Assembly: GCA_964016885.1 (NCBI GenBank)
Contig: OZ024754.1
Span: forward strand, 30,566,001 to 30,630,000
Length of the DNA stretch: 64,000 nucleotides
From: Eledone cirrhosa
Lineage: Eukaryota
Direction: 5' to 3'
Part shown: positions 2,947 to 63,719 of the stretch, piece by piece
Layout of the letters: each line of letters opens with the position of its first letter
Numbering within the stretch: position 1 is the first letter of the stretch
The notes under the pieces: model-generated
Told to the model about the DNA's origin: nothing
The model's input: the letters and a program-made list of their open reading frames with translations, nothing else
Database searches by the model: none
Translations under genes and position numbers: made by a program

Positions 2947-3274
2947 GTTCACAGTTCAACACCATGCCTGTGTCTGTATGATGAAGGTTATTACTAGTCT
3001 TTTCTAAGTCGATAATGATGATGATGATGTTCACAAAGAGTTAAAGTAAAATTAGAACAGTTTATTGATATATTCATATAGTTCATGGTCAGGTGATGTC
3101 GTGTGTTCATCTGAAGCATGTTTCTAATTAGTTTATTCCAATATCTGTATGATAAAGATGATTACTAGTTTTTCCTAAGTCCACAGCCCAACACCATGCC
3201 TGTGTCGGTATGATGAAGGCATATAATGCTTCACCCATGCTAGTATGAAAAGGTGGACATTAAACAGTGATAAT

Positions 3275-3465
3275 AATTGTTTCTACTTTTGGCACAAGGC
3301 CAGCAATTATCCCAGTGTATTACTGGTACTTTATTTTTTCGACCCTGTAAGGATGAAAGACCAAGTTAACCTAGGCGGGATTTGAACTCAGACCATAAAG
3401 GGCTGTAACTCTTTGCTGCAAAGCATGGCGTCCGACCCTCTAACAAAACTGTCAATCCACCACCC
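3275..3465 (-). mobile_element. SINE family A, full length
   Basis: B box gagttcaaatcc; flanked by TSD-like ttaaacagt(g/a)ataataat; a second partial copy follows at 3480-3610. Confidence 0.85.
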
Positions 3466-4375: not shown

Positions 4376-4417
4376 ATATATATGAGTGTGTATTAGAAAT
4401 GTATTAGAAATGAAGAA

Positions 4418-4668
4418 AATCTCAAATGCTGGAGGATGGCTGTGAAAGCTGCTTTAGAAAATCAGGTAAAAATATCCCTACCGACGGAAAAAATGCCCAG
4501 CATCCATTACAGAGAACTGATCTGTGTACCTCTCAAATTCCAGCTGAGAGGTACAGAATTTGATTCTCTGTAACTGCTGCTGGCCCCTTTTCCCAGTTAT
4601 AGGGGTAGTTTTACCCAATTTTCTAAAGCTGTTTTCAGAGTTATTCTCCTGTGTTTGAAGAAGATTAT
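4418..4668. repeat. About 250-bp imperfect palindrome (old MITE-like hairpin)
   Basis: Paired segments gctttagaaaat/attttctaaagc, ttacagagaa/ttctctgtaa and tgtacctctca/tgagaggtaca around 4540. Confidence 0.7.
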
Positions 4669-4707
4669 ATTCATCTGTAATATTTTGTTGCTATATCAAC
4701 CTTGTGA

Positions 4708-6663: not shown

Positions 6664-6725
6664 TATTTTATCTGATGAAAGTGTACCAAAGTTTTTGGTA
6701 CCCTTGAAATATATATAATAGAATA
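6664..6725 (+). ncRNA. Minimal type-I hammerhead ribozyme in a TA-flanked insert (about 6050-6770)
   Basis: tattttat-CTGATGA-aagtgtaccaa..ttggtaccctt-GAAA-tatata-TA-atagaata; 8-bp stem I, palindromic stem III, overlapping AATAAA. Confidence 0.75.
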
Positions 6726-7176: not shown

Positions 7177-7182
<6 letters not shown>

Positions 7183-7342
7183 AAAATAACAGATTAAAGT
7201 TTAAGCAAAGAATCGCTGCTTTCACCCTTTAAACTTTAATCTGTTATTTTAATAAATATTTGCTCTACGGTTCTTATATATTTGATATATATTTATCTTT
7301 ATCGAGCCCTCTTTGGATTTTAGTCTTCAAATTTATTATTAT

Positions 7343-8604: not shown

Positions 8605-8662
8605 ATACCTGATGATGTCACCGGATTCATATGGAACCCGGTCATTGAAATGATCATAGTAT
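8605..8662 (+). ncRNA. Minimal type-I hammerhead ribozyme in a TA-flanked insert (about 8550-8858)
   Basis: atac-CTGATGA-(accggattc/gaacccggt stem II)-GAAA-tgatca-TA-gtat followed directly by AATAAA; palindromic atgatcat. Confidence 0.75.
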
Positions 8663-8880
8663 AATAAACCTTTTAAGGAATTACACCAGTCCAGCCTCCT
8701 GTTATTTTATAATAATTAACTCCGTACTCGGACCCCCAACTACACAAACGAAGACGGGTGAGTTGCATTACATTGAGTGCTCTCCATATTATTACATCGA
8801 GGTTGGCCATACGGAATGACCAGTTCTATCCAGTGGTGAACCAACAAACCTAAATAAATATATATATATATATATATATA

Positions 8881-9731
8881 GAATGTTTAAGTATCGAGAG
8901 AGAGAAAAAAAGGAAAGATAAGCGATACATATATTTAGTTGCCAATAGTTTGTGCAAATGAGCTCAATACTCGTGCCTACAGGGTTAAATATTAGAAGCG
9001 TTAATATTTAGTGGGTGAGAAAATAAGCAGAGTGGTTATAAAAGAAATGAATACAAAGGAGTATATACAGTTAAAACATGTTTATATAACAATGCACCTA
9101 TGTACGTTTCGTCCAGAACGGGCTTCTCAAGGGGATAGAAAACAAAAAAATGACCAGTACGCGACACAGGAGGGGTTTTAAGGTTAAATTCACATCAGAG
9201 TTCATTTTTCGCTTAAGTACATGTGTTGTTATTGCCGCAGAGCAGGAGGAGTAACTCCGGCCGGTGCTTGAATAATCTTGTCCCACTGGCTTTTTTACCT
9301 GTTCACATGATGGTGTTTTGCGTTAATATTTTGTGGGTGCTGCTTTACTAATGCCGGTTCGAGCTGGGTCTGGGATGCCTATTTAGTTCACAGATGTTTG
9401 TTTACGCCGCCTGCCCACCAGAGTGTTAAGGTTTGGGCAGGTGACCCAGTTTATAGTTTTCATGCCACAGTTGCTTCCCACCCGAAGTAAGACGCTTGCA
9501 TTCGGTGCTTACAGTTTATGACTGATTCGGCTCTGCTGTTTATGAGCTCATGGGGTGTTCTTATGATGTAGTAAAGCTCCATGAGGCAAAGCTCACACTT
9601 CCTCTTGAAATTGTAGGGTGCAGCCCTACCTACAATATCCCAGTGTGTGGAGAAGCTGATGTTGGCGAAACGTACGTAGGTGCATTGTTATATAAACATG
9701 TTTTAACAGTATATACTCCTTTGTATTCATT

Positions 9732-9738
<7 letters not shown>
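8881..9738. mobile_element. HHR cassette with about 75-bp inverted arms and about 550-bp spacer
   Basis: 9037-9111 is the reverse complement of 9666-9740; long left arm with tail; (TA)n on both sides. Confidence 0.7.
9095..9134 (-). ncRNA. Hammerhead-like motif, U3/A8 variant
   Basis: cccc-TTGAGAA-gcccgttctggac-GAAA-cgtaca-TA-ggtg; mirror arm (9648-9682) has palindromic acgtacgt but a damaged core. Confidence 0.6.
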
Positions 9739-9773
<35 letters not shown>

Positions 9774-10138: not shown

Positions 10139-10359
10139 ATTTATTAAAATAACAGATTAAAGTTTAAGCAAAGAATCGCTGCTTTCACCCTTAACGGGAT
10201 CTTCTGAAGATCCCGTTAAGGGTGAAAGCAGCGATTCTTTGCTTAAACTTTAATCTGTTATTTTAATAAATATTTGCTCTACGGTTCTTATATATTTGAT
10301 ATATATTTATCCTTATCGAGCCCTCTTTGGATTTTAGTCTTCAAATTTATTATTATTAC

Positions 10360-11212: not shown

Positions 11213-11896
<684 letters not shown>

Positions 11897-11943
11897 TATA
11901 TATATATATATAAATATATATTTATACAAATACATAAATATAC

Positions 11944-11997
<54 letters not shown>

Positions 11998-12000
<3 letters not shown>

Positions 12001-12876
12001 TGACCGAATTAGCAGCGGAGGTGGGTGTTCAGAAAGTACAATATCTAGGGTAAGAACGGGATGGAAGAAGTTCAGGGAACTACTACCACTGCTAGCTGCA
12101 AAAGGCTTCTCCCTCAAAATGAAAGGCAGACTGTATGATGCGTGTATCCGAACAGCAATGTTGCATGGTAGTGAGACCTGGGCACTGAAGGTGGAAGACT
12201 TACATAGATTAGAGAGAAACGAAGCCTGCATGCTCCGATGGATGTGTAATAGTAATATACACAAACGACAAAGCATAAATAAATTGAGAGAGAGACTGAG
12301 CATAAGAGGAATCAAATGCTGTGTGCAGGAGAGGCGGTTGCGTTGGTATGGACATGTGATGCGTATGAAGGATGACAGCTGCATAAAAAGGTGCAGAGCA
12401 CTAGAAGTCGATGGAAACCGCGGAGTGGGGAAACCCAAGATGACCTGGGATGAGGTGATAAAAGCCGACCTTACCCAACTACACCTCTCAAAGGCGATGA
12501 CACACGACCATAACCTCTGGTATCACGCAGTAATACAGAGAACCCGACCTCCCATGGGTACAAGCTGAAGCATATAGACAATATGCCCCCACACCCTCCC
12601 ACTGCAAGGTGGTCGTGGAGGTGCCACGGCAAAAAAGCACCCAGTCCACACTGTAAAGTGGACATGTAGGCGCCACGAAAAAGCACCCAGCACTCACTGT
12701 AAATGAGGTTGGTGTTAGGAAGGGCATCCAGCTGTAGAAATCAAGCCAAATCAGTTCCTGTATGAGCAAGGCATGGTCAGCCGACCCGACACTGCCCACA
12801 ACAGGACAACCCGTCTAACCCATGCTAGCATGGAAGAACGGACATAAAGCGGTGGTGATGATGATAATGATGATGA
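11998..12876 (+). mobile_element. RTE LINE family A 3' fragment with 3' UTR
   Basis: [20 protein letters not shown]...[11 protein letters not shown]; homologous to 62390-63370; (GAT)n tail. Confidence 0.9.
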
Positions 12877-14521: not shown

Positions 14522-14718
14522 GAGGGTGGTGGATTGGCAGATGCAGTAGAGCGTCAGACACCATGCTTTGTGGCATAGAGTTATGGCTCTTTACATTCTG
14601 AGTTCAAATCCTGCCGAGGTTAACTTTGTCTTTCATCCTTACGGGGTCAATAAAATAAAGTACCAGTAATACACTGGGATAATTGCTGGCCTTGTGCCAA
14701 AAGTAGAAACAATTATTA
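14522..14718 (+). mobile_element. SINE family A, full length, followed by a partial copy
   Basis: ggtggattggcag..gagttcaaatcc..gtagaaacaattatt. Confidence 0.85.
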
Positions 14719-16849: not shown

Positions 16850-17056
16850 TATAACGAAGGAAATGTGGTAAGGAACCAGATGGACCATAACACACCAAAG
16901 TACTCAATACTTAGGGTAGTAGAGTGGGTAATAGGAACGAGTAGGACCCCGACGGCTGAGCTCAAGCCGTTTTGATGGCTAATTCTGGACTAATGAGTCC
17001 AGAATTAGCCGTCGAAACGGCTTGAGCTCATCCGTCGGTGTCCTACTTGTTCCTAT
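16850..17056. mobile_element. Fold-back cassette family P5 with hammerhead 3' half
   Basis: Arms 16931-16991 and 16996-17056; GAAA-cgg(cttgagctcat)ccg-TC; related to 50181-50285. Confidence 0.65.
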
Positions 17057-17680
17057 ATATATATATAAATATATCATCATCGTCATCATCCATTCTTCCA
17101 CGCTAGCATGGGTTAGACGGGTTGTCCTGTTGTGAGCAGTGTCCGGTCGGCTGACCTTGTCTTGCTCATACGGGAACATATATATATAATTATTTAAATT
17201 CCATTAGTGTAATCAATTAAATTGATTGTTAAACAAGAATCAAAGACTGCTTACAGTAGTGTTTTCTCAGCATACAAATTATTCCAATTGGTAGATTCTG
17301 TGGTAGTTGTATTGGTTGCATGTGTGCAATTTACAGAATGTATATAGAAAATTACAAAAATATCATAAAAATACCATAATCCAGATGAGTGGGAATAACT
17401 TTTATTGTGTAACGCTTACACGTGTTTCATCATATGTGCTACATATAAGTTTTGGACCGCTAACTTTTGATTATTTCATTATTCTAATCAAATTAACTCA
17501 CATCCAACTCCTTAGATATGTAGTTACAATGAATTTTGATGTATGTATGTGTGTGTGTATGTTTTTTCTGGTTTTATTATTTTATATATTTTCACCAACA
17601 GGGAGAAAGCCACTTTCTAACATAGAAATAAGACTCTCGTTGTAATTTAGACAACATCAACTAGGTCAATACATATGTAT

Positions 17681-17971: not shown

Positions 17972-18545
17972 AAAGTAAACAGAAATAAAAAAGCAAACAA
18001 CACAGTACACTGAAAAATATATTAGTTTAACACTTGAAATAACAGGAAAAGTATTAATGTTTTGGACACGAGTCCTTCATTGGAAGATAGAATTAGAAAT
18101 AAAAGATAAAATATAAAGATAAAGAGTGTGAAGGGGAAAGAATGAAAAATAATTGTTTCTACTTTAGGCACAAGGCCAGTAATTACCCAGTGCATTACTG
18201 GTACTTTATTTTATCGTACCAGTAATGCACTGGGTAATTACTGGCCTTGTGCCTAAAGTAGAAACAATTATTTTTCATTCTTTCCCCTTCACACTCTTTA
18301 TCTTTATATTTTATCTTTTATTTCTAATTCTATCTTCCAATGAAGGACTCGTGTCCAAAACATTAATACTTTTCCTGTTATTTCAAGTGTTAAACTAATA
18401 TATTTTTCAGTGTACTGTGTTGTTTGCTTTTTTATTTCTGTTTACTTTCTGCACACACACACACACACACACGCACACACACACACAGAAACACACACAC
18501 ATACACATACAAAGTTAGGAGGTTGCAAGTACAATGAAAAATAAT
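17873..18545. repeat. About 330-bp-arm palindrome centred on a truncated SINE A
   Basis: 17873-18204 is mirrored by 18216-18535 with an 11-nt spacer; aatgaaaaataat occurs at both 18141 and 18533. Confidence 0.9.
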
Positions 18546-20448: not shown

Positions 20449-20454
<6 letters not shown>

Positions 20455-20825
20455 GTGAGGTTTTTTTTACAAAATGAAAAATAACCGAGGTGTCCTACAC
20501 GAGTGGAAGTATAAAGATAAAGGGATGAAATCGAAAATGCAACTGAAGTCTTATTTTTTAAAAAAATATATATATTTATTTGGTTCCTTTACCGGTTTCG
20601 CAGTTCTTCTGCTTTTCAAAAGGTGAGTTGAGATGGAGGGTCTGTGGTTTTTCTCACATCTGTGGTTTTTCTCACATGTGAGAAAAACCACAGACCCTCC
20701 ATCTCAACTCACCTTTTGAAAAGCAGAAGAACTGCGAAACCGGTAAAGGAACCAAATAAATATATATATTTTAAAAAAAAATAAGACTTCAGTTGCATTT
20801 TCGATTTCATCCCTTTTTCTTTATA
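20449..20825. mobile_element. Fold-back HHR cassette family P1, both arms intact
   Basis: Centre at 20676/20677 preceded by an 18-bp tandem duplication; left arm carries the tail; (TA)n flanks. Confidence 0.8.
20712..20749 (+). ncRNA. Minimal type-I hammerhead ribozyme, U3/A8 variant (mirror on minus strand at 20586-20623)
   Basis: cctt-TTGAAAA-gcag(aagaa)ctgc-GAAA-ccgg-TA-aagg; AATAAA about 5 nt downstream. Confidence 0.75.
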
Positions 20826-22639: not shown

Positions 22640-22642
<3 letters not shown>

Positions 22643-22826
22643 AGATTCTACAGGACTAGAACTGTTTCATTCATTAGAAATCATCAGGAATCAGATTCCT
22701 GATGATTTCTAATGAATGAAACAGTTCTAGTCCTGTAGAATCTCTTCTATATTAAAACTGTTATACTCTGCTATGTATTGAGTACCTTACTTACTGTGGT
22801 TACCTCCGATTCAACCCGGAATAACG

Positions 22827-24055: not shown

Positions 24056-25582
24056 ATGACCATGCTGTAAAATGGAGGGGTAGAGAGGGCCTTGAGTCTA
24101 GTAAGACATCCTCTCCAGTGCTGGTGGCACAAATAAAAGCACCCAGTCTATGCTGTAAAGTGGCGCTGGTGTTAGGAAGGGCATCCAACCAGTGTATCAA
24201 TGCCAAAACGCTTATCAGCACAGCAACAAATAGGAACAACAACAAAATATGAAGACGTCGCATCTCAGAGTTGCAACACTTAATGTTGGCACTCTCAGAG
24301 GTAGATCTGCTGAAATAGCGGAGATGCTGGAGAGAAGGCATGTGGATGTGTGCTGCGTGCAAGAGGTGAGATGGAGAGGTGCCTCTGCGAGACTAGTCGT
24401 AGGCAAACGTCTTAGCTATAAGCTATTCTGGGTAGGTAAGGATGATGGGTTAGGGGGAGTAGGCATTTTCCTGGCTGAGAAATGGATCAATAAGACAATA
24501 GAGGTAGTTCGAGTTAGTAATCGAATAATTAAGCTTAGATTAGTTGTAGGCAGGAGACTATTGACAATCATCTCGGCCTATGCTCCCCAAGCAGGCCTAG
24601 GCAAAGATGAGAAAGACTGCTTTTACGAGCAACTTTTACAAACAACCGCAATGACAGAGGACGGAGACATCGTTATGCTAGCAGGAGACTTCAATGGTCA
24701 TGTTCGACAGCTCCAGGATGGTTACACTGGGGTACAAAGAGGACAAAACCCTGATTCCATCAGGGAAATGGCCATGTTCGATATGCAGAAAAGGAACTGG
24801 CATAAATTCTATAAAATGCACACAATGCAGATCCTGGGTACACAAGAGATGTAGTGGGATAGCAGGCAAACTAACAGGTAGGGAGAAATAGGTATGCAGT
24901 AGATGTACAGGGAAATTAGACAGTAGAAGTCGCATTGATAGACACATTTTTCAGATGCAGAAGGGCGCTATAGAAGTGGTGGATAGTTTCCGGTACCTAG
25001 GAGATCAGATTAGCATGGGAGGAGGGTGTTCTGAGGCCATAGTATCTAGAATAAGGACAGGTTGGAAGAAGTTTAGAGAGCTGCTTCCTCTGTTGACGAA
25101 GAAGGGTTTCTCCCTGCGTACGAAAGGCCAGTTGTATGAAGCCTGTGTGAAGAGCGCAATGCTGCATGGTAGTGAGACATGGGCAGCAACTGCAGAGGAT
25201 ATGCGACGGCTGGAGAGAAATGAGTCAAGCATGCTCCGTTGGATGTGCAGTGTAAATGTACGTGAATGACCCAGCATAAATGTGTTGAGAGAGAAACTGT
25301 GTCTGAGAGGGATAGAATGTAGTGTACGGGAGAGGAGACTGAGGTGGTATGGACATGTGATGTGCATGGAGGATGACCAATGGGTGAAGAAGTGCCAGGA
25401 AATGCCAGTTGAAGGAAGGCGTGGTAGAGGTAGACCATGAAAAACATGGGCGGAGGTGGTGAGAACAGACCTCAGATCATTGAAGCTCACGGTGGAGATG
25501 ACGAAGGACCGTGACGAGTGGAGAGATGCTGTGCTGAATAAGTCCCATCTCACCCTTGCAAGCAGGGAAAAGCGGACGTAAA

Positions 25583-25679: not shown

Positions 25680-26772
25680 TCATCATCATCATCATTATCG
25701 TTTAACGTCCATCTTCCACGCTAGCATGGGTTAGATGGTTTTGTTCCATTTGATGCGGGAATGGTCGGGAGACCGTGTCACACTCGCACAGAAGTGTCTC
25801 TGGCAGGTTTTCTACGGTTGGATGACACCAACCACATTTACAGTGTTGACTGGGAGCCTTTTTACCGTGTCTCCTACACGACCACTTTACAGGATGGACT
25901 GTTGTGTCATTGACACAGTAGACGGAATGTGAAAATGAGGATGGGGTAGGGTGTAGGGGTGGGGTGTACATTGTGTTAAGAAGTGCCTACTAACTGTAGG
26001 TTTGTATGCAATGGCAGTCGGGTCTTCTGTACAACTGCATGGTGCCAAAGATCTCGATCCATTGTCATTGTCTTAGAAAAGTGTAAGTGAGCAAGGTCAG
26101 TTTTTATCACCTCGTGCCAGGTTTTTCTAGGTCTACCCACTCCGTAGCTTCGACAATTTTCATTGCCCTGCACTTTTTTAAACAGCTGTTGTCCTTCATA
26201 CGCATCACATGTCCATACAATCTCCTCTCCAGAACACAACATTTGATAACATTCATTTATGCTTCGCCTTCGCACACATTACTATTTTACATCCATCAGA
26301 GCATGCAAGCTTCATTTCTTTCTAATCTACGCAGGTCTGCCTTTCATTTTTAGAGAAATTAGGAATAAGAGGGATCAGATGCTGTTTACTCGAGAGAAGA
26401 CTACGTTGGTACGGACACGTGATGCACATGAAAGACGACAGCTGTATAAAAAAGTGCAGGGCGATAAAAATAGACAGTAGCCACGGAGTAGGCAGACCCA
26501 GATGAACACCAACTTTTACGCTAAACTTTTCACTATATTCGTTGTTAATTCTAACCTTGCTGACTGTATCTTGATACATGGCTTGTATAGCTCTCACAAG
26601 CCATTCATCTACTCCTAGTTTTCTAAGAGCCCACCAGATAATGGAACGGGGGACTCTGTCAAAGGCTTTCTCCAAGTCAACAAAAGTTAAGTATAGGGGT
26701 TTACTTTTAGCTAGGTACTTCTCCTGTAGTTGTCGTACAATGAAAAGAGCGTCTGTGGTACTTTTACCTGAC
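25678..26772. mobile_element. Rearranged RTE family A fragments (minus, plus, minus)
   Basis: Minus 3' end at 25678-26340; plus piece at about 26345-26500; minus RT piece [11 protein letters not shown] at 26500-26772. Confidence 0.85.
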
Positions 26773-26887
26773 TTTTACCTACTTTTACCTACTTTTACAT
26801 ATATATATATTTACCTGACTTTTATATATTTACATATATATATATTTACCTGACTTTTACCTACTTTTACATATATATATATACTTT

Positions 26888-28075: not shown

Positions 28076-28211
28076 TGTATATATATATATATATATATAG
28101 TGATATGTATATATATATATATATATAGTGATATATATATATATATATATATATATCACTATATATATATATATATATACATATCACTATATATATATAT
28201 ATATATATATA

Positions 28212-28388
28212 GTTGTTTCTACGTTAGGCACAAGGCCAGCAATTTACCAGTGCATTACTGGTACTTTATTTTATCGACCCCGTAAGGATGAAAGGCAAAG
28301 TCAACCTCGGCGGGATTTGAACTCAGATCGTAAAGGGACGTAACTATGCTGGAAAGCATGGCGTCCGACCCTCTACCGATACTGCCAA
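28212..28388 (-). mobile_element. SINE family A
   Basis: Near-identical to 41584-41768. Confidence 0.85.
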
Positions 28389-28409
28389 TACATATATAGT
28401 GATATGTAT

Positions 28410-31399: not shown

Positions 31400-34300
31400 G
31401 CATCACCATCACCACTGTCATCACCATCACCACTGTCATCACCATCACCACTGTCATCACCATCACCACTGTCATCACCATCACCACTGTCATCACCATC
31501 ACCACTGTCATCACCATCACTACTGTCATCACCATCACCACTGTCATCACCATCACTACTGTCATCACCATCATCACTGTCATCACCATCACCACTGTCA
31601 TCACCATCACCACTGTCATCACCATCACCACTGTCATCACCATCACCACTGTCATCACCATCACCACTGTCATCACCATCACCACTGTCATCACCATCAC
31701 CACTGTCATCACCATCACTACTGTCATCACCATCACCACTGTCATCACCATCACCACTGTCATCACCATCACCACTGTCATCACCATCACCACTGTCATC
31801 ACCATCACCACTGTCACCACCATCACCACTGTCATCACCATCACCACTGTCATCACCATCACCACTGTCATCACCATCACCACTGTCACCACCATCACCA
31901 CTGTCATCACCATCACCACTGTCATCACCATCACCACTGTCATCACCATCACTACTGTCATCACCATCATCACTGTCATCACCATCACCACTGTCATCAC
32001 CATCACCACTGTCATCACCATCACTACTGTCATCACCATCACCACTGTCACCACCATCACCACTGTCATCACCATCACCACTGTCATCACCATCACCACT
32101 GTCATCACCATCACCACTGTCACCACCATCACCACTGTCATCACCATCACCACTGTCATCACCATCACCACTGTCATCACCATCACTACTGTCATCACCA
32201 TCATCACTGTCATCACCATCACCACTGTCATCACCATCACCACTGTCATCACCATCACTACTGTCATCACCATCACCACTGTCATCACCATCACTACTGT
32301 CATCACCATCACCACTGTCATCACCATCACCACTGTCATCACCATCACCACTGTCATCACCATCACTACTGTCATCACCATCACCACTGTCATCACCATC
32401 ACTACTGTCATCACCATCGCCACTGTCATCACCATCACCACTGTCATCACCATCACTACTGTCATCACCATCACTACTGTCATCACCATCACCACTGTTA
32501 TCACCACTGTCATCACCATCACCACTGTCATCACCACTGTCATCACCACTGTCATCACCACTGTCATCACCACTGTCATCACCACTGTCATCACCATCAC
32601 TACTGTCATCACCATCACCACTGTCATCACCATCACTACTGTCATCACCACTGTCATCACCATCACCACTGTCATCACCATCACCACTGTCATCACCATC
32701 ACTACTGTCATCACCATCACCACTGTCATCACCATCACTACTGTCATCACCATCACTACTGTCATCACCATCACCACTGTCATCACCATCACTACTGTCA
32801 TCACCATCACCACTGTCATCACCATCACCACTGTCATCACCATCACTACTGTCATCACCATCACCACTGTCATCACCATCACTACTGTCATCACCATCAC
32901 CACTGTCATCACCATCACCACTGTCATCACCATCACTACTGTCATCACCATCACCACTGTCATCACCATCACTACTGTCATCACCATCACCACTGTCATC
33001 ACCATAACCAATGTCATCATCATCACCACTGTCATCACCATCACTACTGTCATCACCATCACCACTGTCATCACCATCACCACTGTCATCACCATCACTA
33101 CTGTCATCACCATCACCACTGTCATCACCATCACTACTGTCATCACCATCACCACTGTCATCACCATCACTACTGTCATCACCATCACCACTGTCATCAC
33201 CATCACTACTGTCATCACCATCACCACTGTCATCACCATCACCACTGTCATCACCATCACCACTGTCATCACCATCACTACTGTCATCACCATCACCACT
33301 GTCATCACCATCACTACTGTCATCACCATCACTACTATCATCACCATCACTACTGTCATCACCATCACCACTGTCATCACCATCACCACTGTTATCACCA
33401 CTGTCATCACCATCACCACTGTCATCACCACTGTCATCACCACTGTCATCACCATCACTACTGTCATCACCATCACCACTGTCATCACCATCACTACTGT
33501 CATCACCACTGTCATCACCATCACCACTGTCATCACCATCACCACTGTCATCACCATCACTACTGTCATCACCATCACCACTGTCATCACCATCACTACT
33601 GTCATCACCATCACTACTGTCATCACCATCACCACTGTCATCACCATCACTACTGTCATCACCATCACCACTGTCATCACCATCACTACTGTCATCACCA
33701 TCACCACTGTCATCACCATCACCACTGTCATCACCATCACCACTGTTATCACCATCACCACTGTCATCACCATCACCACTGTCATCACCATCACTACTGT
33801 CATCACCATCACTACTGTCATCACCATCACCACTGTCATCACCATCCCTACTGTCATCACCATCACCACTGTCATCACCACTGTCATCACCATCACTACT
33901 GTCATCACCATCACCACTGTCATCACCATCACCACTGTCATCACCATCACCACTGTCATCACCATCACTACTATCATCACCATCACCACTGTCATCACCA
34001 TCACCACTGTTATCACCACTGTCATCACCATCACTACTGTCATCACCATCACCACTGTCATCACCATCACCACTGTCATCACCATCACCATTGTCATCAC
34101 CATCACTACTGTCATCACCATCACCACTGTCATCACCATCACCACTGTCATCACCACTGTCATCACCATCACTACTGTCATCACCATCACCACTGTCATC
34201 ACCATCACTACTGTCATCACCATCACCACTGTCATCACCATCACCACTGTCATCACCATCACCACTGTCATCACCATCACCACTGTCATCACCATCACCA

Positions 34301-35500
34301 CTGTCATCACCATCACCACTGTCATCACCATCACCACTGTCATCACCATCACTACTGTCATCACCATCACCACTGTCATCACCATAACCACTGTCATCAC
34401 AATCACCACTGTCATCACCATCACCACTGTCATCACCATCACCACTGTCATCACCATCACTACTGTCATCACTATCACCACTGTCATCACCATCACTACT
34501 GTCACCACCATCACTACTGTCATCACCATCACCACTGTCATCACCATCACCACTGTCATCACCATCACCACTGTCATCACCATCACTACTATCATCACCA
34601 CTGTCATCACCATCACCACTGTCATCACCATCACCACTGTCATCACCACTGTCATCACCATCACTACTGTCATCCCCATCACTACTGTCATCACCATCAC
34701 TACTGTCATCACCATCACCACTGTCATCACCATCACCACTGTCATCACCATCACTACTGTCACCACCATCACCACTGTCATCACCATCACTACTGTCATC
34801 ACCATCACTACTGTCATCACCATCACTACTGTCATAACCATCACCACTGTCATCACCATCACTACTGTCACCACCATCACCACTGTCATCACCATCACCA
34901 CTGTCATCACCATCACTACTGTCACCACCATCACCACTGTCATCACCATCACCACTGTCATCACCATCACCACTGTCATCACCATCACTACTGTCATCAC
35001 CATCACTACTGTCATCACCATCACCACTGTCATCACCATCACTACTGTCACCACCATCACCACTGTCATCACCATCACCACTGTCATCACCATCACCACT
35101 GTCATCACCATCACCACTGTCATCACCATCACCACTGTCATCACCATCACCACTGTCATCACCATCACCACTGTCAACACCATCACCACTGTCATCACCA
35201 TCACTACTGTCATCACCATCACCACTGTCATCACCATCACTACTGTCATCACCATCACTACTGTCATCACCATCACCACTGTCATCACCATCACCACTGT
35301 CATCACCATCACCACTGTCATCACCATCACCACTGTCATCACCACTGTCATCACCATCACCACTGTCATCACCATCACCACTGTCATCACCACTGTCATC
35401 ACCATCACTACTGTCATCACCATCACCACTGTCATCACCATCACCACTGTCATCACCATCACCACTGTCATCACCATCATCACCATCACCACTGTCATCA
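31400..35500. repeat. About 4.1-kb 18-bp minisatellite (atcaccatcaccactgtc) with 12-bp variants
   Basis: Seen directly; preceded by a (CAT)n tract at 31055-31400. Confidence 0.97.
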
Positions 35501-35699: not shown

Positions 35700-36476
35700 A
35701 ATGTTCGTAAACCAAAACTATTTTTCCCATACAAAATGTTGAGAGAGAAATACAGTGAGAGAGAGGGAGACTATGTGTGAAAGACAGATAGATATCACCT
35801 TAGTAACTAACTACGCAGTAAGTGATGCTTCCCCACTGATACTCCCATGTGTGTTTATTACTCGAGACATCGTTCATCACCCGAGACATTTTATGTTCAG
35901 AAAAATTGTTCATGAACTGATTTGGTCCTGATGAGGGGCATTTGTGAACCAATTTGCTCCTGATGAGAGGGGTTTGGGAACCAATTTGTTCATAACCAGA
36001 GGGGTTTGGGAACCAATTTGTTCATAACCAGAGGGGTTTGGGAACCAATTTGTTCATAACCAGAGGAGTTTGGGAACCAATTTGTTCATAATCAGAGGAG
36101 TTTGGGAACCAATTTGTTCATAACCAGAGGGGTTTGGGAACCAATTTGTTCATAACCAGAGGAGTTTGGGAACCAATTTGTTCATAATCAGAGGAGTTTG
36201 GGAACCAATATGTTCATAACCAGAGGAGTTTGGGAACCAATTTGTTCATAACCAGAGGAGTTTGGGAACCAATTTGTTCATAATCAGAGGAGTTTGGGAA
36301 CCAATTTGTTCATAATCAGAGGAGTTTGGGAACCAATATGTTCATAATCAGAGGAGTTTGGGAACCAATATGTTCATAATCAGAGGAGTTTGGGAACCAA
36401 TTTGTTCATAATCAGAGGAGTTTGGGAACCAATATGTTCATAACCAGAGGAATTTGGGAACCAAAGTTCCACTGTA
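35700..36476. mobile_element. pogo/Tigger-like MITE remnant with a 32-bp tandem array (35930-36465)
   Basis: Right end gttccactg-TA; unit gaggagtttgggaaccaatttgttcataacca, about 16 copies. Confidence 0.6.
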
Positions 36477-37128: not shown

Positions 37129-37611
37129 ACGGTGGATTGGCAGTATCGGTAGAGGGTCGGACGTCATACTTTGATGCATAGAGTTACGGCCCTTTCCATT
37201 CTGAGTTCAAATCCCGTCGAGGTTAACTTTACCTTTCATCCTTACGGGGTCAATAAAATAAAGTACCAGTAATAGACTGGGTATTTGCTGGCCTTGTGCC
37301 AAAAAGTAGAAACAATTATATATAAATTAACAATTTTATTATGTATTATATATAAATATAGTAAAATGAAAAAGAAATGATTTTTTTTATACATAGTATA
37401 TATTATGTTATACTATGTGTAAAAAAATATCATTTCTGTGGATTGGCAGTATTGATAGAGGGTCGGACGCATATAGTTACCTCCCTTTATGATCTGAGTT
37501 CAAATCCTGCTGAGGTTAACTTTGCCTTTCATCCTTACGGGGGTCGATAAAATAAAGTACCAGTAATGTACTGGGTAATTGCTGGCCTTGTGCCAAAAGT
37601 AGAAACAATTA
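37129..37611 (+). mobile_element. Two SINE A copies (37129-37319 and 37437-37611)
   Basis: Family A head, B box and tail in both copies. Confidence 0.85.
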
Positions 37612-40550: not shown

Positions 40551-41236
40551 CTAAATCAGGCATCCATGTTGAAAGGTTTAAGTAGATTATAGAATTAACT
40601 AATATAAACTGGCTATAACTGTGAAAAAACACTCATCATATTGACAGATAATAACTTATTAATTATAGCAAGTTATTAATGCTGTCAAATATGATAACTT
40701 CTTTTAACTCAAAATTTTTAAATGAATTTTCCTTATAGTAATTCAATTTCTCTTTTCCCTAATAATCCTTCTATGTTATTAATTATGTCTTTGTATATGC
40801 CTTAACTCTGTTATTAATTAAAGGACTCTGTATGTCTCTACATTATAATCCTCTTTAGTCTGTTCTTTGTTTTCTTCAGTGTGGTCTAGATTAAAGTTTG
40901 GTTGTGCAATAAAAGGCAAACGTAATAACATTGTGATTTATTTTTTAATTTTTAGAATTAACTCAAACTAATTAAATTTACAATGTTGAATTTCTTTTGA
41001 AAAATGAAATTCAAAGACTTTATTGTTAATACTTGATGAGAAAATTTGAACTAAGGCACTAACTACGATGCTATGATTCATCTAACATACTTTACCATAC
41101 TCCATTCCGTATATATATATATATATAAGACTGCATACCATCTACCATCCCATACTATACCATCTAGGATGTATTTTTTATATAATGCTCTATATCATAC
41201 CACACCACACCATTTACCATCTACCATCTTATATAT

Positions 41237-41428
41237 AATTGTTTCTACTTTTGGTACAAGGCCAGTAATTACCCAGTAGATTATTGGTACTTTATTTTAT
41301 CGACCCCCTTAAGGATGAAAGGCAAAGTTAAACTCGGCAGGATTTGAACTCAGAATAGCAAGGGCCGTAACTCTATACGTCAAAGCATGGCGTCCGACCC
41401 TCTACCGATACTGCCAATTCACCGCCCT
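41237..41428 (-). mobile_element. SINE family A
   Basis: Full length; TSD-like ttatatataat. Confidence 0.85.
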
Positions 41429-41583
41429 TATATATATAATGATTGGAGAACTGCGAGACTGTGTCCAATATAATTTTTTACATCACATTATTAAAATATG
41501 TTGGATTACTTTGAATAAATCATGAATAAATATTATGTAATTTATCTACTAAATTTCTTAGCTCTTGATTAAAGATAAATAAT

Positions 41584-41768
41584 TGTTTCTACTTTAGGCA
41601 CAAGGCCAGCAATTACCCAGTGCATTATTGGTACTTTATTTTATCGACCCCGTAAGGATGAAAGGCAAAGTCAACCTCGGCGGGATTTGAACTCAGATCG
41701 TAAAGGGACGTAACTATGCTGGAAAGCATGGCGTCCGACTCTCTACCGATACTGCCAATCCACCGCCC
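41584..41768 (-). mobile_element. SINE family A, young copy with 18-bp TSD
   Basis: tgattaaagataaataat at 41566-41583 and 41769-41786. Confidence 0.92.
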
Positions 41769-42024
41769 TGATTAAAGATAAATAATCTTATATATAATGT
41801 ATTGCTTATTTCAAGATTCACTTCTGTTAAAACTTTCAAATATCGACTTCCGTTAGCGTTCATATCATAACATTTTGCTGTAATGCCATTATTATATGAA
41901 CGCTAATAGAAGTTGACATTTGAAAGTTTAAATACAGGGGTTGGTTTCAGGCTGGTATCAAAAGGGTTAATCCCAACAACTGGTCATTGGGTGCCTTTAG
42001 CAGACTTCACTCTACTGCAATATT

Positions 42025-43799: not shown

Positions 43800-44655
43800 T
43801 CTCAATTCAAATTGTACCTTTTATGTTCTAAGTTCAAATCCTGCTGGAGTTAGCTTTGCCTTTCATCCTTATGGGGTTGATAAAATAAGTACCAGTAACA
43901 CATGGGGGTCAATTTAATTGACTATCCTCTCCCCTAAACATTGCTGGCCTTGTGCCTAAATCAGAAATCATTCGGTGGATTGGCAGTATCGGTAGAGGGT
44001 CGGACGCCATGCTTTCCAGCATAGTTATGTCCTTTTACGATCTGAGTTCAAATCCCGCCGAGGTTAATTTTGCCTTTCATCCTTATGGGGTCGATAAAAT
44101 AAAGTACCAGTAATGCACTGGGTAATTGCTGGCCTTGTGCCTAAAGTAGAAACAATTATTTATAGTTACATCCCTTTACATTCTGATTTCAAATCTCGCT
44201 GAGATTAGCTTTGCCTTTCATCCTTAAGGGGTCAGTGAAATAAAGAAAATCAGCAGTGCGAGGTCTGAGGACACTGGAGGCCTCAATAGCTACTGGTATA
44301 AAATAGAAAAGATCAGTCATAGCCCCCCCCCCCCCCCCCGTATTTGATTAACTTCCATTTCTCTGTATGGTGGCAAATTGGCAGAGTTGTTAAGACGTCG
44401 GATAGAATGCTTTATGGTATTTGTCCCACCTCATTGTGTGCTTTGAATCCAAATCCCACCCTGGTCAATGTTGCCTTTCATCCTATTAAGGTCGATAAAA
44501 AAAGTACCAGTCCAGTACTGGGGTCTATTCTTCCGCTATAGAAAAAATCAGCTGTGTTTAGACCTGGAGAGGGTTGGGCTCCACCAGGTTTAAAAGTGCC
44601 CTAGACATGCCATATGGTGGTGCCTCTACGACTCCACAAGGAGTTATGGGATCTT
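43800..44655 (+). mobile_element. Cluster of SINE A copies (about 43800-43972, 43973-44160, 44165-44245, 44365-44655)
   Basis: Repeated gttcaaatcc..gcctttcatcctt..aaaataaagtaccag. Confidence 0.8.
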
Positions 44656-49637: not shown

Positions 49638-50078
<441 letters not shown>

Positions 50079-50180
50079 TATATATATATAAATGTATTCA
50101 TCATCATCATAGTTTTATGCTTTACTCATACGTTGCATACAATTTCTAAAGAATGTTATGCATATATATATATATATATA

Positions 50181-50285
50181 GGAGAAAGTATGACTCCGAC
50201 GGCAGAGCTCAAGCCGTTTCGACGGCTACTCCAGAAATAGCCGTCGAAACGGCTTGAGCTCTGCCGTCGGGGTCATACTTTCTAC
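50181..50285. mobile_element. Fold-back cassette family P5
   Basis: 46-bp arms, 9-nt loop; gacggcta..tagccgtc-GAAA-cggc(ttgagctct)gccg-TC-gggg. Confidence 0.7.
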
Positions 50286-50477
50286 TATTATATATATATA
50301 TATATTCATCATCATTATAGTTTTATGGTTTACTCATATGTTGCATATTTGGTGAGACAATTTCTAAAGAAACTTTCAATAATTTTTATCTGAATTATTG
50401 TTTCCAGGAAACTAAAATATAATCAAAATTAGAATCATACCACCCACAAGACCTATTATATTAAGAGCAAATATATT

Positions 50478-52745: not shown

Positions 52746-52825
52746 GGTAGGGGTAGTGGATGTAAATTATATTACCTGAGTATTATTAGAAATGAGACCC
52801 GTTCAAACATTTAATAAGGGAAATA

Positions 52826-53012
52826 ATTGTTTCTACTTTTGGCACAAGGCCAGCAATTACCCAGTGCATTACTGGTACTTTATTTTATCGACCCCCGTAA
52901 GGATGAAAGGCAAAGTTAACCTCGGCGGGATTTGAACTCAGACCGTAAAGGGGCGTAACTCTATGCTTCAAAGCATTGTGTCCGACTCTCTACCAATACT
53001 GCCAATCCACCG
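52826..53012 (-). mobile_element. SINE family A with about 19-bp TSD
   Basis: atttaataag(g/t)gaaataat on both sides. Confidence 0.9.
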
Positions 53013-53364
53013 TAATTTAATAAGTGAAATAATGTTGTTGTCGTGGTTTTTGCTGTTGTTGTTGTTTTCTGGATTCTTCTTCTTCTGGAAGGGAGAGAGA
53101 TAAAAAAGACAGCTGACGTCACAGTTCAGGATATCTTTACTGTGACTCTTAAAAATGGAAATCTTGCTATGCTTGATAGAAGTCCCACTAATACATTATT
53201 AAAATCTCCGCTACCTCTTTCTAATTACAAACAACTAACTAACAGCTAAGCAACAAAATAACTAAATAACTAAATAACTTGTAAATAAATTATTCATTTC
53301 AGAAATTACTGCAAGAATTTGAGAATGCTGTTGGAGGTGGATTGAGTAGTCATGGTCATAAAGT

Positions 53365-57129: not shown

Positions 57130-58680
57130 GCAGACCTCCAACATGGCTGTCCGTTTGTCAATATATCATCTAGAGAGAGATAAACTTCCATCATGGCTGC
57201 CTGCCTTTCAATATATCATCTAGAGAGAGATAGACCTCCAGCATGGCTGCCTGTTTCTCAATATATCATCTAGAGAGAGATAGACTTCCATCATGGCTGC
57301 CTGTTTCTCAATATATCATCTAGAGAGAGATAGACCTCCATCATGGCTGCCTGTTTCTCAATATATCATCTAGAGAGAGATAGACCTCCATCATGGCTGC
57401 CTGTTTCTCAATATATCATCTAGAGAGAGATAGACCTCCATCATGGCTGCCTGTTTCTCAATATATCATCTAGAGAGAGATAGACCTCCATCATGGCTGC
57501 CTGTTTCTCAATATATCATCTAGAGAGAGATAGACCTCCATCATGGCTGCCTGTTTCTCAATATATCATCTAGAGAGAGATAGACCTCCATCATGGCTGC
57601 CTGTTTCTCAATATATCATCTAGAGAGAGATAGACCTCCATCATGGCTGCCTGTTTCTCAATATATCATCTAGAGAGAGATAGACTTCCATCATGGCTGC
57701 CTGTTTCTCAATATATCATCTAGAGAGAGATAGACCTCCATTATGGCTGCCTGTTTCTCAATATATCATCTAGAGAGAGATAGACCTCCATCATGGCTGC
57801 CTGTTTCTCAATATATCATCTAGAGAGAGATAGACCTCCAGCATGGCTGTCTGTTTCTCAATATATCATCTAGAGAGAGATAGACTTCCATCATGGCTGC
57901 CTGTTTCTCAATATATCATCTAGAGAGAGATAGACCTCCATCATGGCTGTCTGTTTCTCAATATATCATCTAGAGAGAGATAGACCTCCATCATGGCTGC
58001 CTGTTTCTCAATATATCATCTAGAGAGAGATAGACCTCCATCATGGCTGTCTGTTTCTCAATATATCATCTAGAGAGAGATAGACCTCCATCATGGCTGT
58101 CTGTTTCTCAATATATCATCTAGAGAGAGATAGACCTCCAGCATGGCTGCCTGTTTCTCAATATATCATCTAGAGAGAGATAGACTTCCATCATGGCTGC
58201 CTGTTTCTCAATATATCATCTAGAGAGAGATAGACCTCCATCATGGCTGTCTGTTTCTCAATATATCATCTAGAGAGAGATAGACCTCCATCATGGCTGC
58301 CTGTTTCTCAATATATCATCTAGAGAGAGATAGACTTCCATCATGGCTGCCTGTTTCTCAATATATCATCTAGAGAGAGATAGACCTCCATCATGGCTGT
58401 CTGTTTCTCAATATATCATCTAGAGAGAGATAGACCTCCAGCATGGCTGCCTGTTTCTCAATATATCATCTAGAGAGAGATAGACTTCCATCATGGCTGC
58501 CTGTTTCTCAATATATCATCTAGAGAGAGATAGACTTCCATCATGGCTGCCTGTTTCTCAATATATCATCTAGAGAGAGATAGACCTCCAGCATGGCTGC
58601 CTGTTTCTCAATATATCATCTAGAGAGAGATAGACTTCCATCATGGCTGCCTGTTTCTCAATATATCATCATGGCTGTCT
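57130..58680. repeat. 50-bp minisatellite, about 31 copies
   Basis: tagagagagatagacctccatcatggctgcctgtttctcaatatatcatc with an exact 50-bp period. Confidence 0.97.
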
Positions 58681-59099: not shown

Positions 59100-60723
<1,624 letters not shown>

Positions 60724-60726
60724 TTC

Positions 60727-63373
60727 AATAAATTTCAAAGCATATTACTTGATGCTTTCGACAGTAAGGAAGAACATTTAGAGTCGGACAATATAGAGGG
60801 ACAGTGGGAATTTCTGAAAGCAAACCTGCTGTTGGTGACAGACGAAGTCTGTAGCTGGAGCAGGCCTGTAGGCAGGAGGAGAGTAACATGGTGGTGGAAC
60901 AGTAAGGTGGAGGGGTCAATTAAGGCCAAAAAGCAGGCTTGGAAAGTATGGCGGGATGGGGGAAGTAGAGTAGACTATCAAGTGGCCAGGAGGGAAGCTA
61001 GGAGAGAAGTGTACTTAGCAAGAAGGGAAGCTGAGGAAAGAAAGTTCAAGCATGTTCTACAACGCGATGACCAAAAACGTGAGGTGTTCAGGATTGCTAG
61101 GCAATGCGTCAAGGAAAACCGTGATATTGTCGGGGAGAAGTGTGTACTTAACGATGATGGCATACTTGCCATCACCGACACTGATAAGAAGGTAGCTTGG
61201 AAGTGTCACTATGAAAGGCTACTAAATGAGGAGAATAAATGGGAGAAAGACAGTCTCCCCCATATCGACCCAATAGAGGGACCAGCAGTGTTAGTCGAGG
61301 GGAGTATAATAAGTAAGGCAATCAAGGATATGAAGACGGGTAAGGCGGCTGGGCCTTCGGAAATAGTTGCTGAGATGCTGAAGGCATCTGGCACGGTGGG
61401 ACACACCATGGTCACCCGCATAGTTAACCGAGTCGTACAGAATGGGGTTGTTCCGAAGGACTGGCATAGCAGCATCATCGTTAACTGTTATATGGGTAAA
61501 GGAGACGCCCTAGATAGGAGTAACTATAGAGGCATTAAATTAATCGACCAGGTCATGAAGGTCACGGAAAAAGTAATAGCGCAACTAATCAGAGAGAGAA
61601 TTGACCTAGATGAAATGCAGTTCGGGTTTGTGTCAGGCAAAAGTACCACAGACGCTCTTTTCATAGTACGACAACTACAGGAGAAGTACCTAGCAAAAGG
61701 TAAACCCCTCTACTTAGCTTTTGTCGACTTGGAGAAAGCCTTCGACAGAGTCCCCCGCTCCATTATCTGGTGGGCTCTTAGAAAACTAGGTGTTGACGAA
61801 TGGCTTGTGAGGGCTATACAAGCCATGTATAAAGAAACAGTCAGCAAGGTTAGAATTAACAACGAATATAGTGAAGAGTTTAGCGTAAAAGTTGGCGTCC
61901 ATCAGGGCTCTGTTCTCAGCCCCCTATTATTTATTATTGCTCTTCAGGCTATAACAGAGGAGTTCAAGACAGGCTGCCCATGGGAACTCCTATACGCAGA
62001 CGACCTGACACTCATAGCGGAATCAATGGCCGAGCTAGAGAAGAAATTCCAAACATGGAAGCACGGCCTAGAGTCAAAAGGACTTAAAATTAACCTGGCT
62101 AAGACCAAAGTTCTAGTTTGTAGGAAAGAAAACAAGGCGGCGGTCCCTTCTGGGAAATGGTCGTGCTTGGTGTGTAGGAAAGGCGTAGGTAGAAACTCCA
62201 TTTTATGTCCTAAATGCAAAGTATGGGTGCATAAAAGATGTAGTGGGATCACAGGTAAGCTAACTACGAACATAGATTTTACATGTGGCCGGTGTTCTGG
62301 TGCAATAAGTAGCAGCAAGTGCCCACAAAATACTAGCTCTTTCAATTGCGCAGAGGGTTCTATAGAAATAGTGGACAGCTTCCGTTACCTGGGCGATAAA
62401 ATCAGCAGTGGGGGAGGGTGCTCTGAAAGTACTGTAGCTAGAGTCAGAACTGGTTGGAAAAAGTTCAGAGAGCTTATACCACTATTAGCTGCTAAAGGGT
62501 TCTCCCTAAAAATGAAAGGCAGGTTGTACGATGCCTGCATACGAACAGTAATGTTGCATGGCAGTGAAACCTGGGCATTGTGTGCAGAGGATATACGCAG
62601 ACTAGAGAGGAACGAAGCTTGCATACTCCGCTGGATGTGTAACAGTAATATACGTGAACGGCAAAGCAGAAACGAACTAAGGAAAAAATTAGAGATAAGA
62701 GGGATCAGATGTTGTTTACTCGAGAGAAGGCTACGTTGGTATGGACACGTGATGCGCATGAAAGTCGATAGCTGTATAACAAAGTGCAGGGCAATAAAGA
62801 TAGACGGTAGTCACGGAATAGGCAGACCTAGAAAAACCTGGGACGAGCTGATAAACTCTGACATCACACACTTACACCTCTCCAAGACAATGTCACTGGA
62901 CCGAGACCTTTGGCGGTACTCAGTAACAGAGAAGACCCGCCTTACCTAAATATATATAGTAAAACCTACTCCAGCCAGTAGGCATCTCTAACAAAATACA
63001 CCCCGTCCCACCCCCACCACCCCCACCCCATCCACACCACCCCGTTCTATGTAAAGTTATGTTGGTGCCGCGCCATCCAGGCCGAAACAAATGAGATTGT
63101 GTAGGCCGAAACAAATGAGATCGTGTAGGTGTCACGACAAAAAAACACACAATCCACGCTGTAATGTGGCCGTGTAGGCAACACGGTAAAAACCTCCCAG
63201 ACCCACACTGTAAATGTGGTTGGTGTTAGGAAGGGCATCCAACTGTAGAAAACCTGCCAGACAGTCCTATGCGAGCAAGACAATCACTCTTGCCTCAAGT
63301 GGGACTACCCCCGTCCAAACCCATGCAAGCGTGGAACACGGACGTTAAACGTTGATGATGATGATGATGATGA
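60727..63373 (+). mobile_element. 5'-truncated RTE-clade LINE family A
   Basis: Long RT ORF, about 400-bp 3' UTR, (GAT)n tail, adjacent to (TA)n. Confidence 0.95.
60733..62949 (+). CDS. RTE ORF, partial: linker, reverse transcriptase, PHD-type finger, C-terminus; endonuclease lost
   Basis: [44 protein letters not shown]; frame is open upstream of the annotated start. Confidence 0.93.
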
Positions 63374-63672: not shown

Positions 63673-63719
63673 TGCTCCGAAGAATCCAAACCTCGGTTTG
63701 GAGGAAACAGCTGTAAGCA
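63673..63719 (+). ncRNA. Minimal hammerhead-like motif, U4C variant
   Basis: tgct-CCGAAGA-atccaaac(ctcg)gtttggag-GAAA-cagctg-TA-agca; palindromic acagctgt. Confidence 0.7.

Follow-up and report, generated by a model that had tools for sequence, protein, structure and literature searches.

The closest described relatives of the motif considered here are the minimal hammerhead ribozymes of Penelope-like elements (PLEs), for which Cervera and de la Pena (2014; PMC4209133) report a palindromic helix III, dual motifs on opposite strands 100–700 bp apart and low dimer cleavage, these published minimal hammerheads cleaving poorly even as dimers. The same work counts a U3–A8 pair as an accepted core variant of PLE-type minimal hammerheads and reports about 1,300 U3–A8 hits, in Cercyon PLE motifs; its supplement lists the core UUGAAAA for a PLE-associated motif of Schistosoma mansoni (row S. 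mansoni(4)). Perreault et al. (2011; PMC3088659) describe natural covariation from C3–G8 to U3–A8, the latter said to be active in vitro, and note that palindromic stem and loop III allow dimers in repeat-type hammerheads. Among PLEs, the Hydra clade – which includes one family from Octopus bimaculoides – is characterised by CxxC and CxH motifs around E and N, by (TA)n targets and by hammerheads (PMC8557442). Inverted 5'-truncated copies with a one-sided tail are the PLE insertion pattern published in that paper, and two start sites of reverse transcription have been put forward to account for the one-sided tail (PMC11167929).

The locus described here lies in a window of 64,000 nt from Eledone cirrhosa (contig OZ024754.1, positions 30,566,001–30,630,000). 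At 20712–20749 on the plus strand, a reading of core and stems, a strict descriptor and a scan with positions 3 and 8 left free all recover a minimal type I hammerhead of 38 nt, here called P1. Its 4-bp stem I (CCUU 20712–20715 / AAGG 20746–20749) is followed inwards by the core UUGAAAA (20716–20722; U3 = 20716, A8 = 20721), a 4-bp stem II GCAG/CUGC (20723–20735) closed by G10.1–C11.1 (G20723–C20735), GAA at 20736–20738, the palindromic stem III ACCGGU (20739–20744) and N17 (A20745), after which cleavage is predicted. The core variant, the GAA-A, A15.1–U16.1 (U20744) and H17 (A20745) are all as required for a minimal type I hammerhead, and the 4-bp helix I together with G10.1–C11.1 fits the criterion of about 4–5 bp for helix I in PLE-type hammerheads. 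The first-pass annotation had stated that UUGAAAA replaces CUGANGA in P1, which the coordinates confirm, and that positions 3 and 8 pair in the active fold, so that U3–A8 is a compensatory variant, which agrees with PMC4209133 and PMC3088659. P1 has neither an extra nucleotide between 9 and 10.1 nor a long helix II; these features are common, not universal, in PLE minimal hammerheads (PMC4209133) and are likewise missing from the Hydra-2_aMil row of PMC8557442 and from the Marsupenaeus row in the supplement of PMC4209133. Their absence does not disqualify P1 as a PLE-type minimal hammerhead. Judged by sequence and structure, the motif is real and of a kind already known, with cleavage as a prediction.

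P1 does not stand alone. An identical second hammerhead lies on the minus strand at 20586–20623 (core position 3 at 20619, N17 at 20590), in the opposite arm of a fold-back at 20510–20825 whose two near-identical arms of about 150 bp meet at a central ACATGT (20675–20680), with an 18-nt duplication at the junction (20641–20677). Only one arm carries a 3' tail, of about 60 nt (20449–20509, minus strand), which then runs into (TA)n; the tail-less arm meets (TA)n at 20822. A third P1 hammerhead, at 2283–2320 on the minus strand (core position 3 at 2316), has an uncompensated change that cuts stem I to 3 bp, and belongs to a second fold-back at 2208–2528 that has the same ACATGT junction (2355/2356), a tail on its plus arm and (TA)n on both sides. 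In the plus arm of this second locus, the core and stem II have been deleted between two short ACC repeats (2356–2382). Core, stem II and stem III are invariant among the three complete copies. In both loci the fold-back occurs at the same ACATGT about 35 nt upstream of stem I, and every arm starts at the same base. Diagnostic bases are common to the two arms of one locus and differ between the loci, as expected if one template was copied into both arms.

The P1 tail is present in many copies: in one sequencing run (X1), 1669 contigs aligned to it, and contigs of this run have loose ends into (TA)n at 20510 and at about 20460. The alignments, made with four runs of which one (X8) yielded nothing, covered 20449–20548 only and left out 20549–20659. 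Of 24 sequencing runs listed, 16 share part of the stretch, four of these at least half of the words, and no RNA run is listed as sharing it. The P1 motif was absent from the phage records searched and, as an exact pattern, from metagenome contigs. The combination of an inverted 5'-truncated copy, a one-sided tail and insertion in (TA)n is found at both P1 loci and at a third locus, 9037–9740. For 17 of 18 motif copies the next (TA)5 lies within 250 nt, the background share within 260 nt being 0.36. This comparison is given little weight because the copies are not independent and the 44 nt measured for P1 is to an internal run.

Could such a motif be a chance resemblance in an AT-rich, repeat-rich genome? 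The strict descriptor, which demands the exact core (position 3 C or U, position 8 G or A), the two stems and a perfect palindrome, matched five times in the window (the three P1 copies and motifs at 6672 and 8609). In 200 local dinucleotide shuffles it matched 0.02 times on average and never more than once. The five matches are three independent families, the three P1 matches counting as one. Relaxed descriptors gave nine matches against 0.9 and seven against 1.1 per shuffle, so that about one match per shuffle is to be had at that setting. A scan with no palindrome requirement and with positions 3 and 8 free gave 13 matches against 3.3 per shuffle; a palindrome of at least 6 nt together with C–G or U–A at 3–8 occurred in five of the 13 but in only one of 198 shuffle matches, and six of the 13 resemble background. 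On the side of chance there are also the folding energy of P1 on its own, which is not significant (z -0.94), and Rfam: its hammerhead families gave no match to 20670–20800 at E up to 10 (three weak unrelated matches appeared), and over the whole window no hammerhead stood among the 150 of 280 matches listed, the yield being microsatellite-driven miRNA matches below gathering score. Descriptors fixed on CUGANGA, like Rfam, overlook U3–A8 motifs. Against chance, finally, P1 sits in a (TA)n-flanked fold-back, as do other motifs of the window. Chance resemblance is disfavoured by these counts, and we consider it very improbable.

The first-pass annotation had also drawn on other motifs of the window, and these vary in quality. 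Its second U3–A8 core, UUGAGAA, is present, albeit on the minus strand (9095–9134; core position 3 at 9130, N17 = A9099) and in a motif with mismatches in all three stems: stem I has three of four pairs, stem II one mismatch, and stem III is the imperfect ACGUACAU. None of the descriptors used retrieved it. An inverted 5'-truncated copy of the same element end (9666–9740, plus strand) begins just before GAAA and retains only GAAA, ACGTACGT and the 3' half of stem I before (TA)n; what surrounds the perfect ACGTACGT at 9670 (GAA at 9667) is therefore half a motif. C3–G8 hammerheads were found by the strict descriptor and the free-3/8 scan on the plus strand at 6664–6725, with an 8-bp stem I and stem III ATATATAT, and at 8605–8662, with stem III ATGATCAT; a third C3–G8 motif, with a U4C change and stem III ACAGCTGT, was found by a descriptor and the free-3/8 scan at 63673–63719 (plus strand). 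U4C is a low-activity natural variant (PMC3088659). A doubtful motif at 17413–17456 (minus strand) has GAA, ACACGTGT and a hairpin, with two changes in its core UCCAAAA and no stem I, and is either a decayed copy or chance. The six palindromes that the annotation had listed as stem III regions of different families therefore hold up in part: accggt, atgatcat (8609), atatatat (6672) and acagctgt (63677, with its U4C core) stand in complete motifs, whereas acgtacgt is the half motif and acacgtgt stands without an intact core and stem I. The 8-mer atatatat occurs 2066 times on the plus strand.

Counted by hand, the hammerhead families number nine (P1, 9130, 6672, 8609, 11713/11648, 63677, 48563, 22699/22687 with 16577, and 10204/10206/50010), leaving out 17413, with the possibility that 63677 and 48563 are a single family. 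Seven of these hand-picked families are C3–G8, two are U3–A8 and none is mismatched (Fisher 0.028). What had been called strong covariation evidence is thus real but thin, with two U3–A8 families against seven C3–G8 and three invariant P1 copies. The window's roughly nine hammerhead-bearing repeat families make a natural panel for the role of weak ribozymes in Penelope transposition.

Several arrangements among these families may be recorded. The 8609 (plus) and 9130 (minus) element ends enter one (TA)n, at about 8860–8880, from opposite sides. The hammerheads at 63673–63719 (plus) and about 48563 (minus) are similar, with U4C cores CCGAAGA and CCGAUGA and intact stems. A fold-back at 22641–22752, lying in (TA)n with a tail on one arm, carries two C3–G8 hammerheads whose stem III region is 16 nt long (a 4-bp stem with a central CTAG), and has a relative at about 16577 (minus). 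The fold-back at 11460–11897 has C3–G8 hammerheads on both arms (11713 plus, 11648 minus), with AGAACT, an imperfect palindrome, as stem III in each. The segments 10141–10273, 50007–50079 and 7179–7332 belong to one repeat family, whose hammerhead-like motif has a long, nearly palindromic stem III; the family folds back inside the core at 10205, and bits of its 3' end recur at about 20847 and 20974. Fold-back palindromes with no recognisable hammerhead occur at 16931–17056, 50183–50288, 4402–4682 and 41827–41932, the first two rejected as hammerheads on reading by eye.

The wider setting is animal repeat DNA rich in (TA)n, other microsatellites and LINE fragments. A LINE reverse transcriptase frame of 743 aa (60718–62949, plus strand; Pfam RVT_1, E 1.8e-32) with a PHD-type finger has related fragments at 11876–12568, 24234–25582 and 25936–26774. 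A dispersed SINE-like repeat of about 190 bp has at least ten copies in the window, including 3273–3461, 14523–14718, 28209–28392, 37131–37319, 41235–41424, 41575–41765, 43973–44164 and 52823–53013, and its end forms a fold-back at 18154–18266. Long tandem arrays lie at 31401–35483, 35941–36464 and 57132–58670, with units of 18 nt (about 230 copies), 32 nt (16 copies) and 50 nt.

The link to Penelope comes from the second U3–A8 motif. On the minus strand at 9460–9666, a homologue search and a profile identify what is left of the C-terminus of a Penelope GIY-YIG endonuclease. It shows the Hydra-clade pattern CxxC..E..N..CxH, in agreement with both the text and the alignment of PMC8557442, and its stop codon precedes the 9130 core by 330 nt. 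The 68-aa remnant retrieved 163 proteins at E up to 0.001; among the 150 homologues listed, CxxCxxE..N..CxH is present in 139 and the CxCx5C linker in 15. Pfam gave no match to the remnant and a weak GIY-YIG match, below cut-off, in two of the 28 homologues scanned. The profile built from the homologues matched the six frames of the window once, at 9666–9490, and reading all six frames upstream of P1 and of the motifs at 6672, 17456 and 63677 revealed no remnant of Penelope; the reverse transcriptase part of the element, with its RWK and DKT motifs and CxCx5C linker, lies outside the window. By the remnant beside it, the 9130 motif belongs to the end of a Hydra-clade Penelope-like element. Elsewhere in the window the profile finds nothing, so that descent of P1 itself from a Penelope element is inferred from layout, and the parent's clade, cleavage by P1 and a role in transposition can be proposed with the same reserve.

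Taking these observations together, we think it quite probable that P1 is a genuine minimal type I hammerhead from the 3' end (pLTR region) of a Penelope-like element, or from a short derivative of one, whose donor RNA cuts as a dimer and inserts head to head; the element itself is probably one of the Hydra clade, which targets (TA)n. Its donor RNA would have a U3–A8 pair in place of C3–G8. Stem III – a single A–U pair closing CCGG – should not be formable within one molecule, so two copies would join through ACCGGU and exchange stem I strands, giving a double hammerhead that would cut after A17, probably slowly. The genomic copy would then be the product of insertion, two reverse-transcribed 3' ends standing head to head with one of them 60 nt longer, and its one-sided tail could arise if reverse transcription began at two sites and both strands were extended (compare PMC11167929). 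Against this account, no endonuclease or reverse transcriptase remnant adjoins P1, Rfam has no match, P1 lacks the extra nucleotide after A9 and a long helix II, U3 pairs with A17 in the computed fold, and the nearest partner on the same strand is at least 18 kb away; published minimal hammerheads, moreover, cut poorly even in dimeric form, and for one PLE insertion in vitro did not depend on cleavage (PMC11167929).

The same layout admits another origin. P1 would then be, in place of a long element's randomly truncated end, a complete non-autonomous RNA of about 205 nt whose 5' end is fixed, and a Penelope enzyme acting in trans would mobilise it and insert it as two fold-back arms. The ribozyme would still be real, and its origin alone would differ. 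The shared ACATGT junction and the common start of the arms at both loci fit a fixed end, as do the high copy number and the fact that no copy of P1 in the window has coding remnants beside it, its arms ending about 35 nt upstream of the motif; moreover, hammerhead-bearing non-autonomous PLE derivatives have been described (bioRxiv 10.64898/2026.07.22.740005). Yet there are two loci only, a palindrome-favoured junction or one fold-back master would look alike, and P1 is not tandem, unlike the retrozymes of that preprint – the window holds no tandem array containing the P1 motif and thus nothing that answers to the head-to-tail definition of a retrozyme. We regard this origin as possible, if tentative.

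Computed folds bear on whether P1 could cut at all. For a single molecule the hammerhead fold comes to +0.7 kcal/mol (P 3e-6), for two molecules the double hammerhead reaches -18.9 kcal/mol, close to the co-fold minimum of -20.3 kcal/mol, and the ACCGGU palindrome duplex contributes -8.3 kcal/mol. The A15.1–U16.1 pair, whose computed probability is 0.0 for the monomer, reaches 0.92 in the dimer, which bears out the earlier proposal, in line with PMC4209133 and PMC3088659, that a palindromic stem III fits dimer cleavage. These energies and pair probabilities suggest that P1 is built for dimer cleavage after A17. The two copies at 20510–20825 lie on opposite strands and so could form no dimer in cis; a transcript of the fold-back, at a computed -257.8 kcal/mol, would collapse from either strand into a hairpin of about 150 bp (stem II P 3e-18). 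A read-through transcript of either strand would thus bury the ribozyme and should be inactive, and since the next same-strand copy is 18 kb off, the genomic P1 copy is predicted to be silent, any activity being that of the donor RNA. The first-pass annotation was therefore sound in its hammerhead and dimer logic, but overlooked the Penelope context and the opposite-strand fold-back.

In the minimum-energy fold, U3 pairs with A17 (P 0.56 in the monomer, 0.46 in the dimer). A17 is common to both U3–A8 families, P1 and 9130, and U3–A17 lengthens stem I in the computed folds. P1 might accordingly descend from a hammerhead and be catalytically dead or nearly so, its cleavage site covered by U3–A17 and its element spreading with no need of cleavage. 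Such a reading would agree with the C3–G17 trap that is the accepted cause of the poor activity of G17 minimal hammerheads (PMC3884650), with the absence of evident tertiary contacts, with cleavage mutants that left insertion of an anole PLE unaffected in vitro (PMC11167929) and with the uncompensated stem changes in the 9130 motif and the 2316 copy. It sits poorly, however, with the intact state of the other core positions, of G10.1–C11.1 and of the palindrome in all three complete P1 copies, and with the in vitro activity reported for U3–A8 (PMC3088659); a U–A pair is also a weaker trap than C–G, and nearest-neighbour models do not score the tertiary core. On balance we consider a dead motif unlikely. 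Rather improbable, in our estimate, is a further version in which P1 would be the non-autonomous RNA of about 205 nt with a self-silencing fold-back, and a switch between U3–A8 and U3–A17 would keep the RNA uncut until copies pair; if this were true, U3–A8 would be a tuned attenuator and not a neutral swap.

Set against known systems, then, the genuine dimer-cutting hammerhead that we favour adds little by way of discovery: PMC4209133 already describes the U3–A8 pair, the core UUGAAAA, a palindromic helix III and weak cleavage by dimers. What it adds is a U3–A8 motif tied to a Hydra-clade element – a clade whose listed motifs are all C3–G8 – and a predicted, testable competing pair, U3–A17. 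A literature search for octopus, hammerhead ribozyme and Penelope found Craig et al. alone, and the families may stand in repeat libraries; the P1 and 9130 motif strings had no match in the supplement of Craig et al. (2021; PMC8557442).

P1 resembles the Cercyon and S. mansoni PLE motifs of PMC4209133 in being type I, with a short helix I, U3–A8, a palindromic helix III and a second motif nearby on the opposite strand, and differs from them in its 6-nt stem III ACCGGU (not ACGU), its 4-bp helix II and the lack of an extra base after A9; its N17 is A, whereas the two published S. mansoni U3–A8 rows have U17 and G17. Like the Hydra-clade PLE hammerheads of PMC8557442, including Hydra-1_Obim, the motifs here lie in (TA)n targets, come with inverted 5'-truncated copies and have a longer stem III that is self-complementary; the very sequence ACCGGT is present in Chlamys-2_cBra. 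The 9130 motif, like theirs, comes 3' of a GIY-YIG C-terminus in which CxxC and CxH surround E and N. At about 60 nt, the P1 tail exceeds the 30–40 nt given for the PLEs of that paper, and all 26 Hydra rows of its File S2 are C3–G8, compared with U3–A8 here, that search having used a canonical descriptor. The survey of Perreault et al. (PMC3088659) is a broad one and concerns a different family from P1. Non-LTR retrozymes (bioRxiv 10.64898/2026.07.22.740005), which have been linked to PLE pLTRs, are non-coding and carry a type I hammerhead, as P1 does, but they form head-to-tail arrays, whereas P1 stands as a head-to-head pair.
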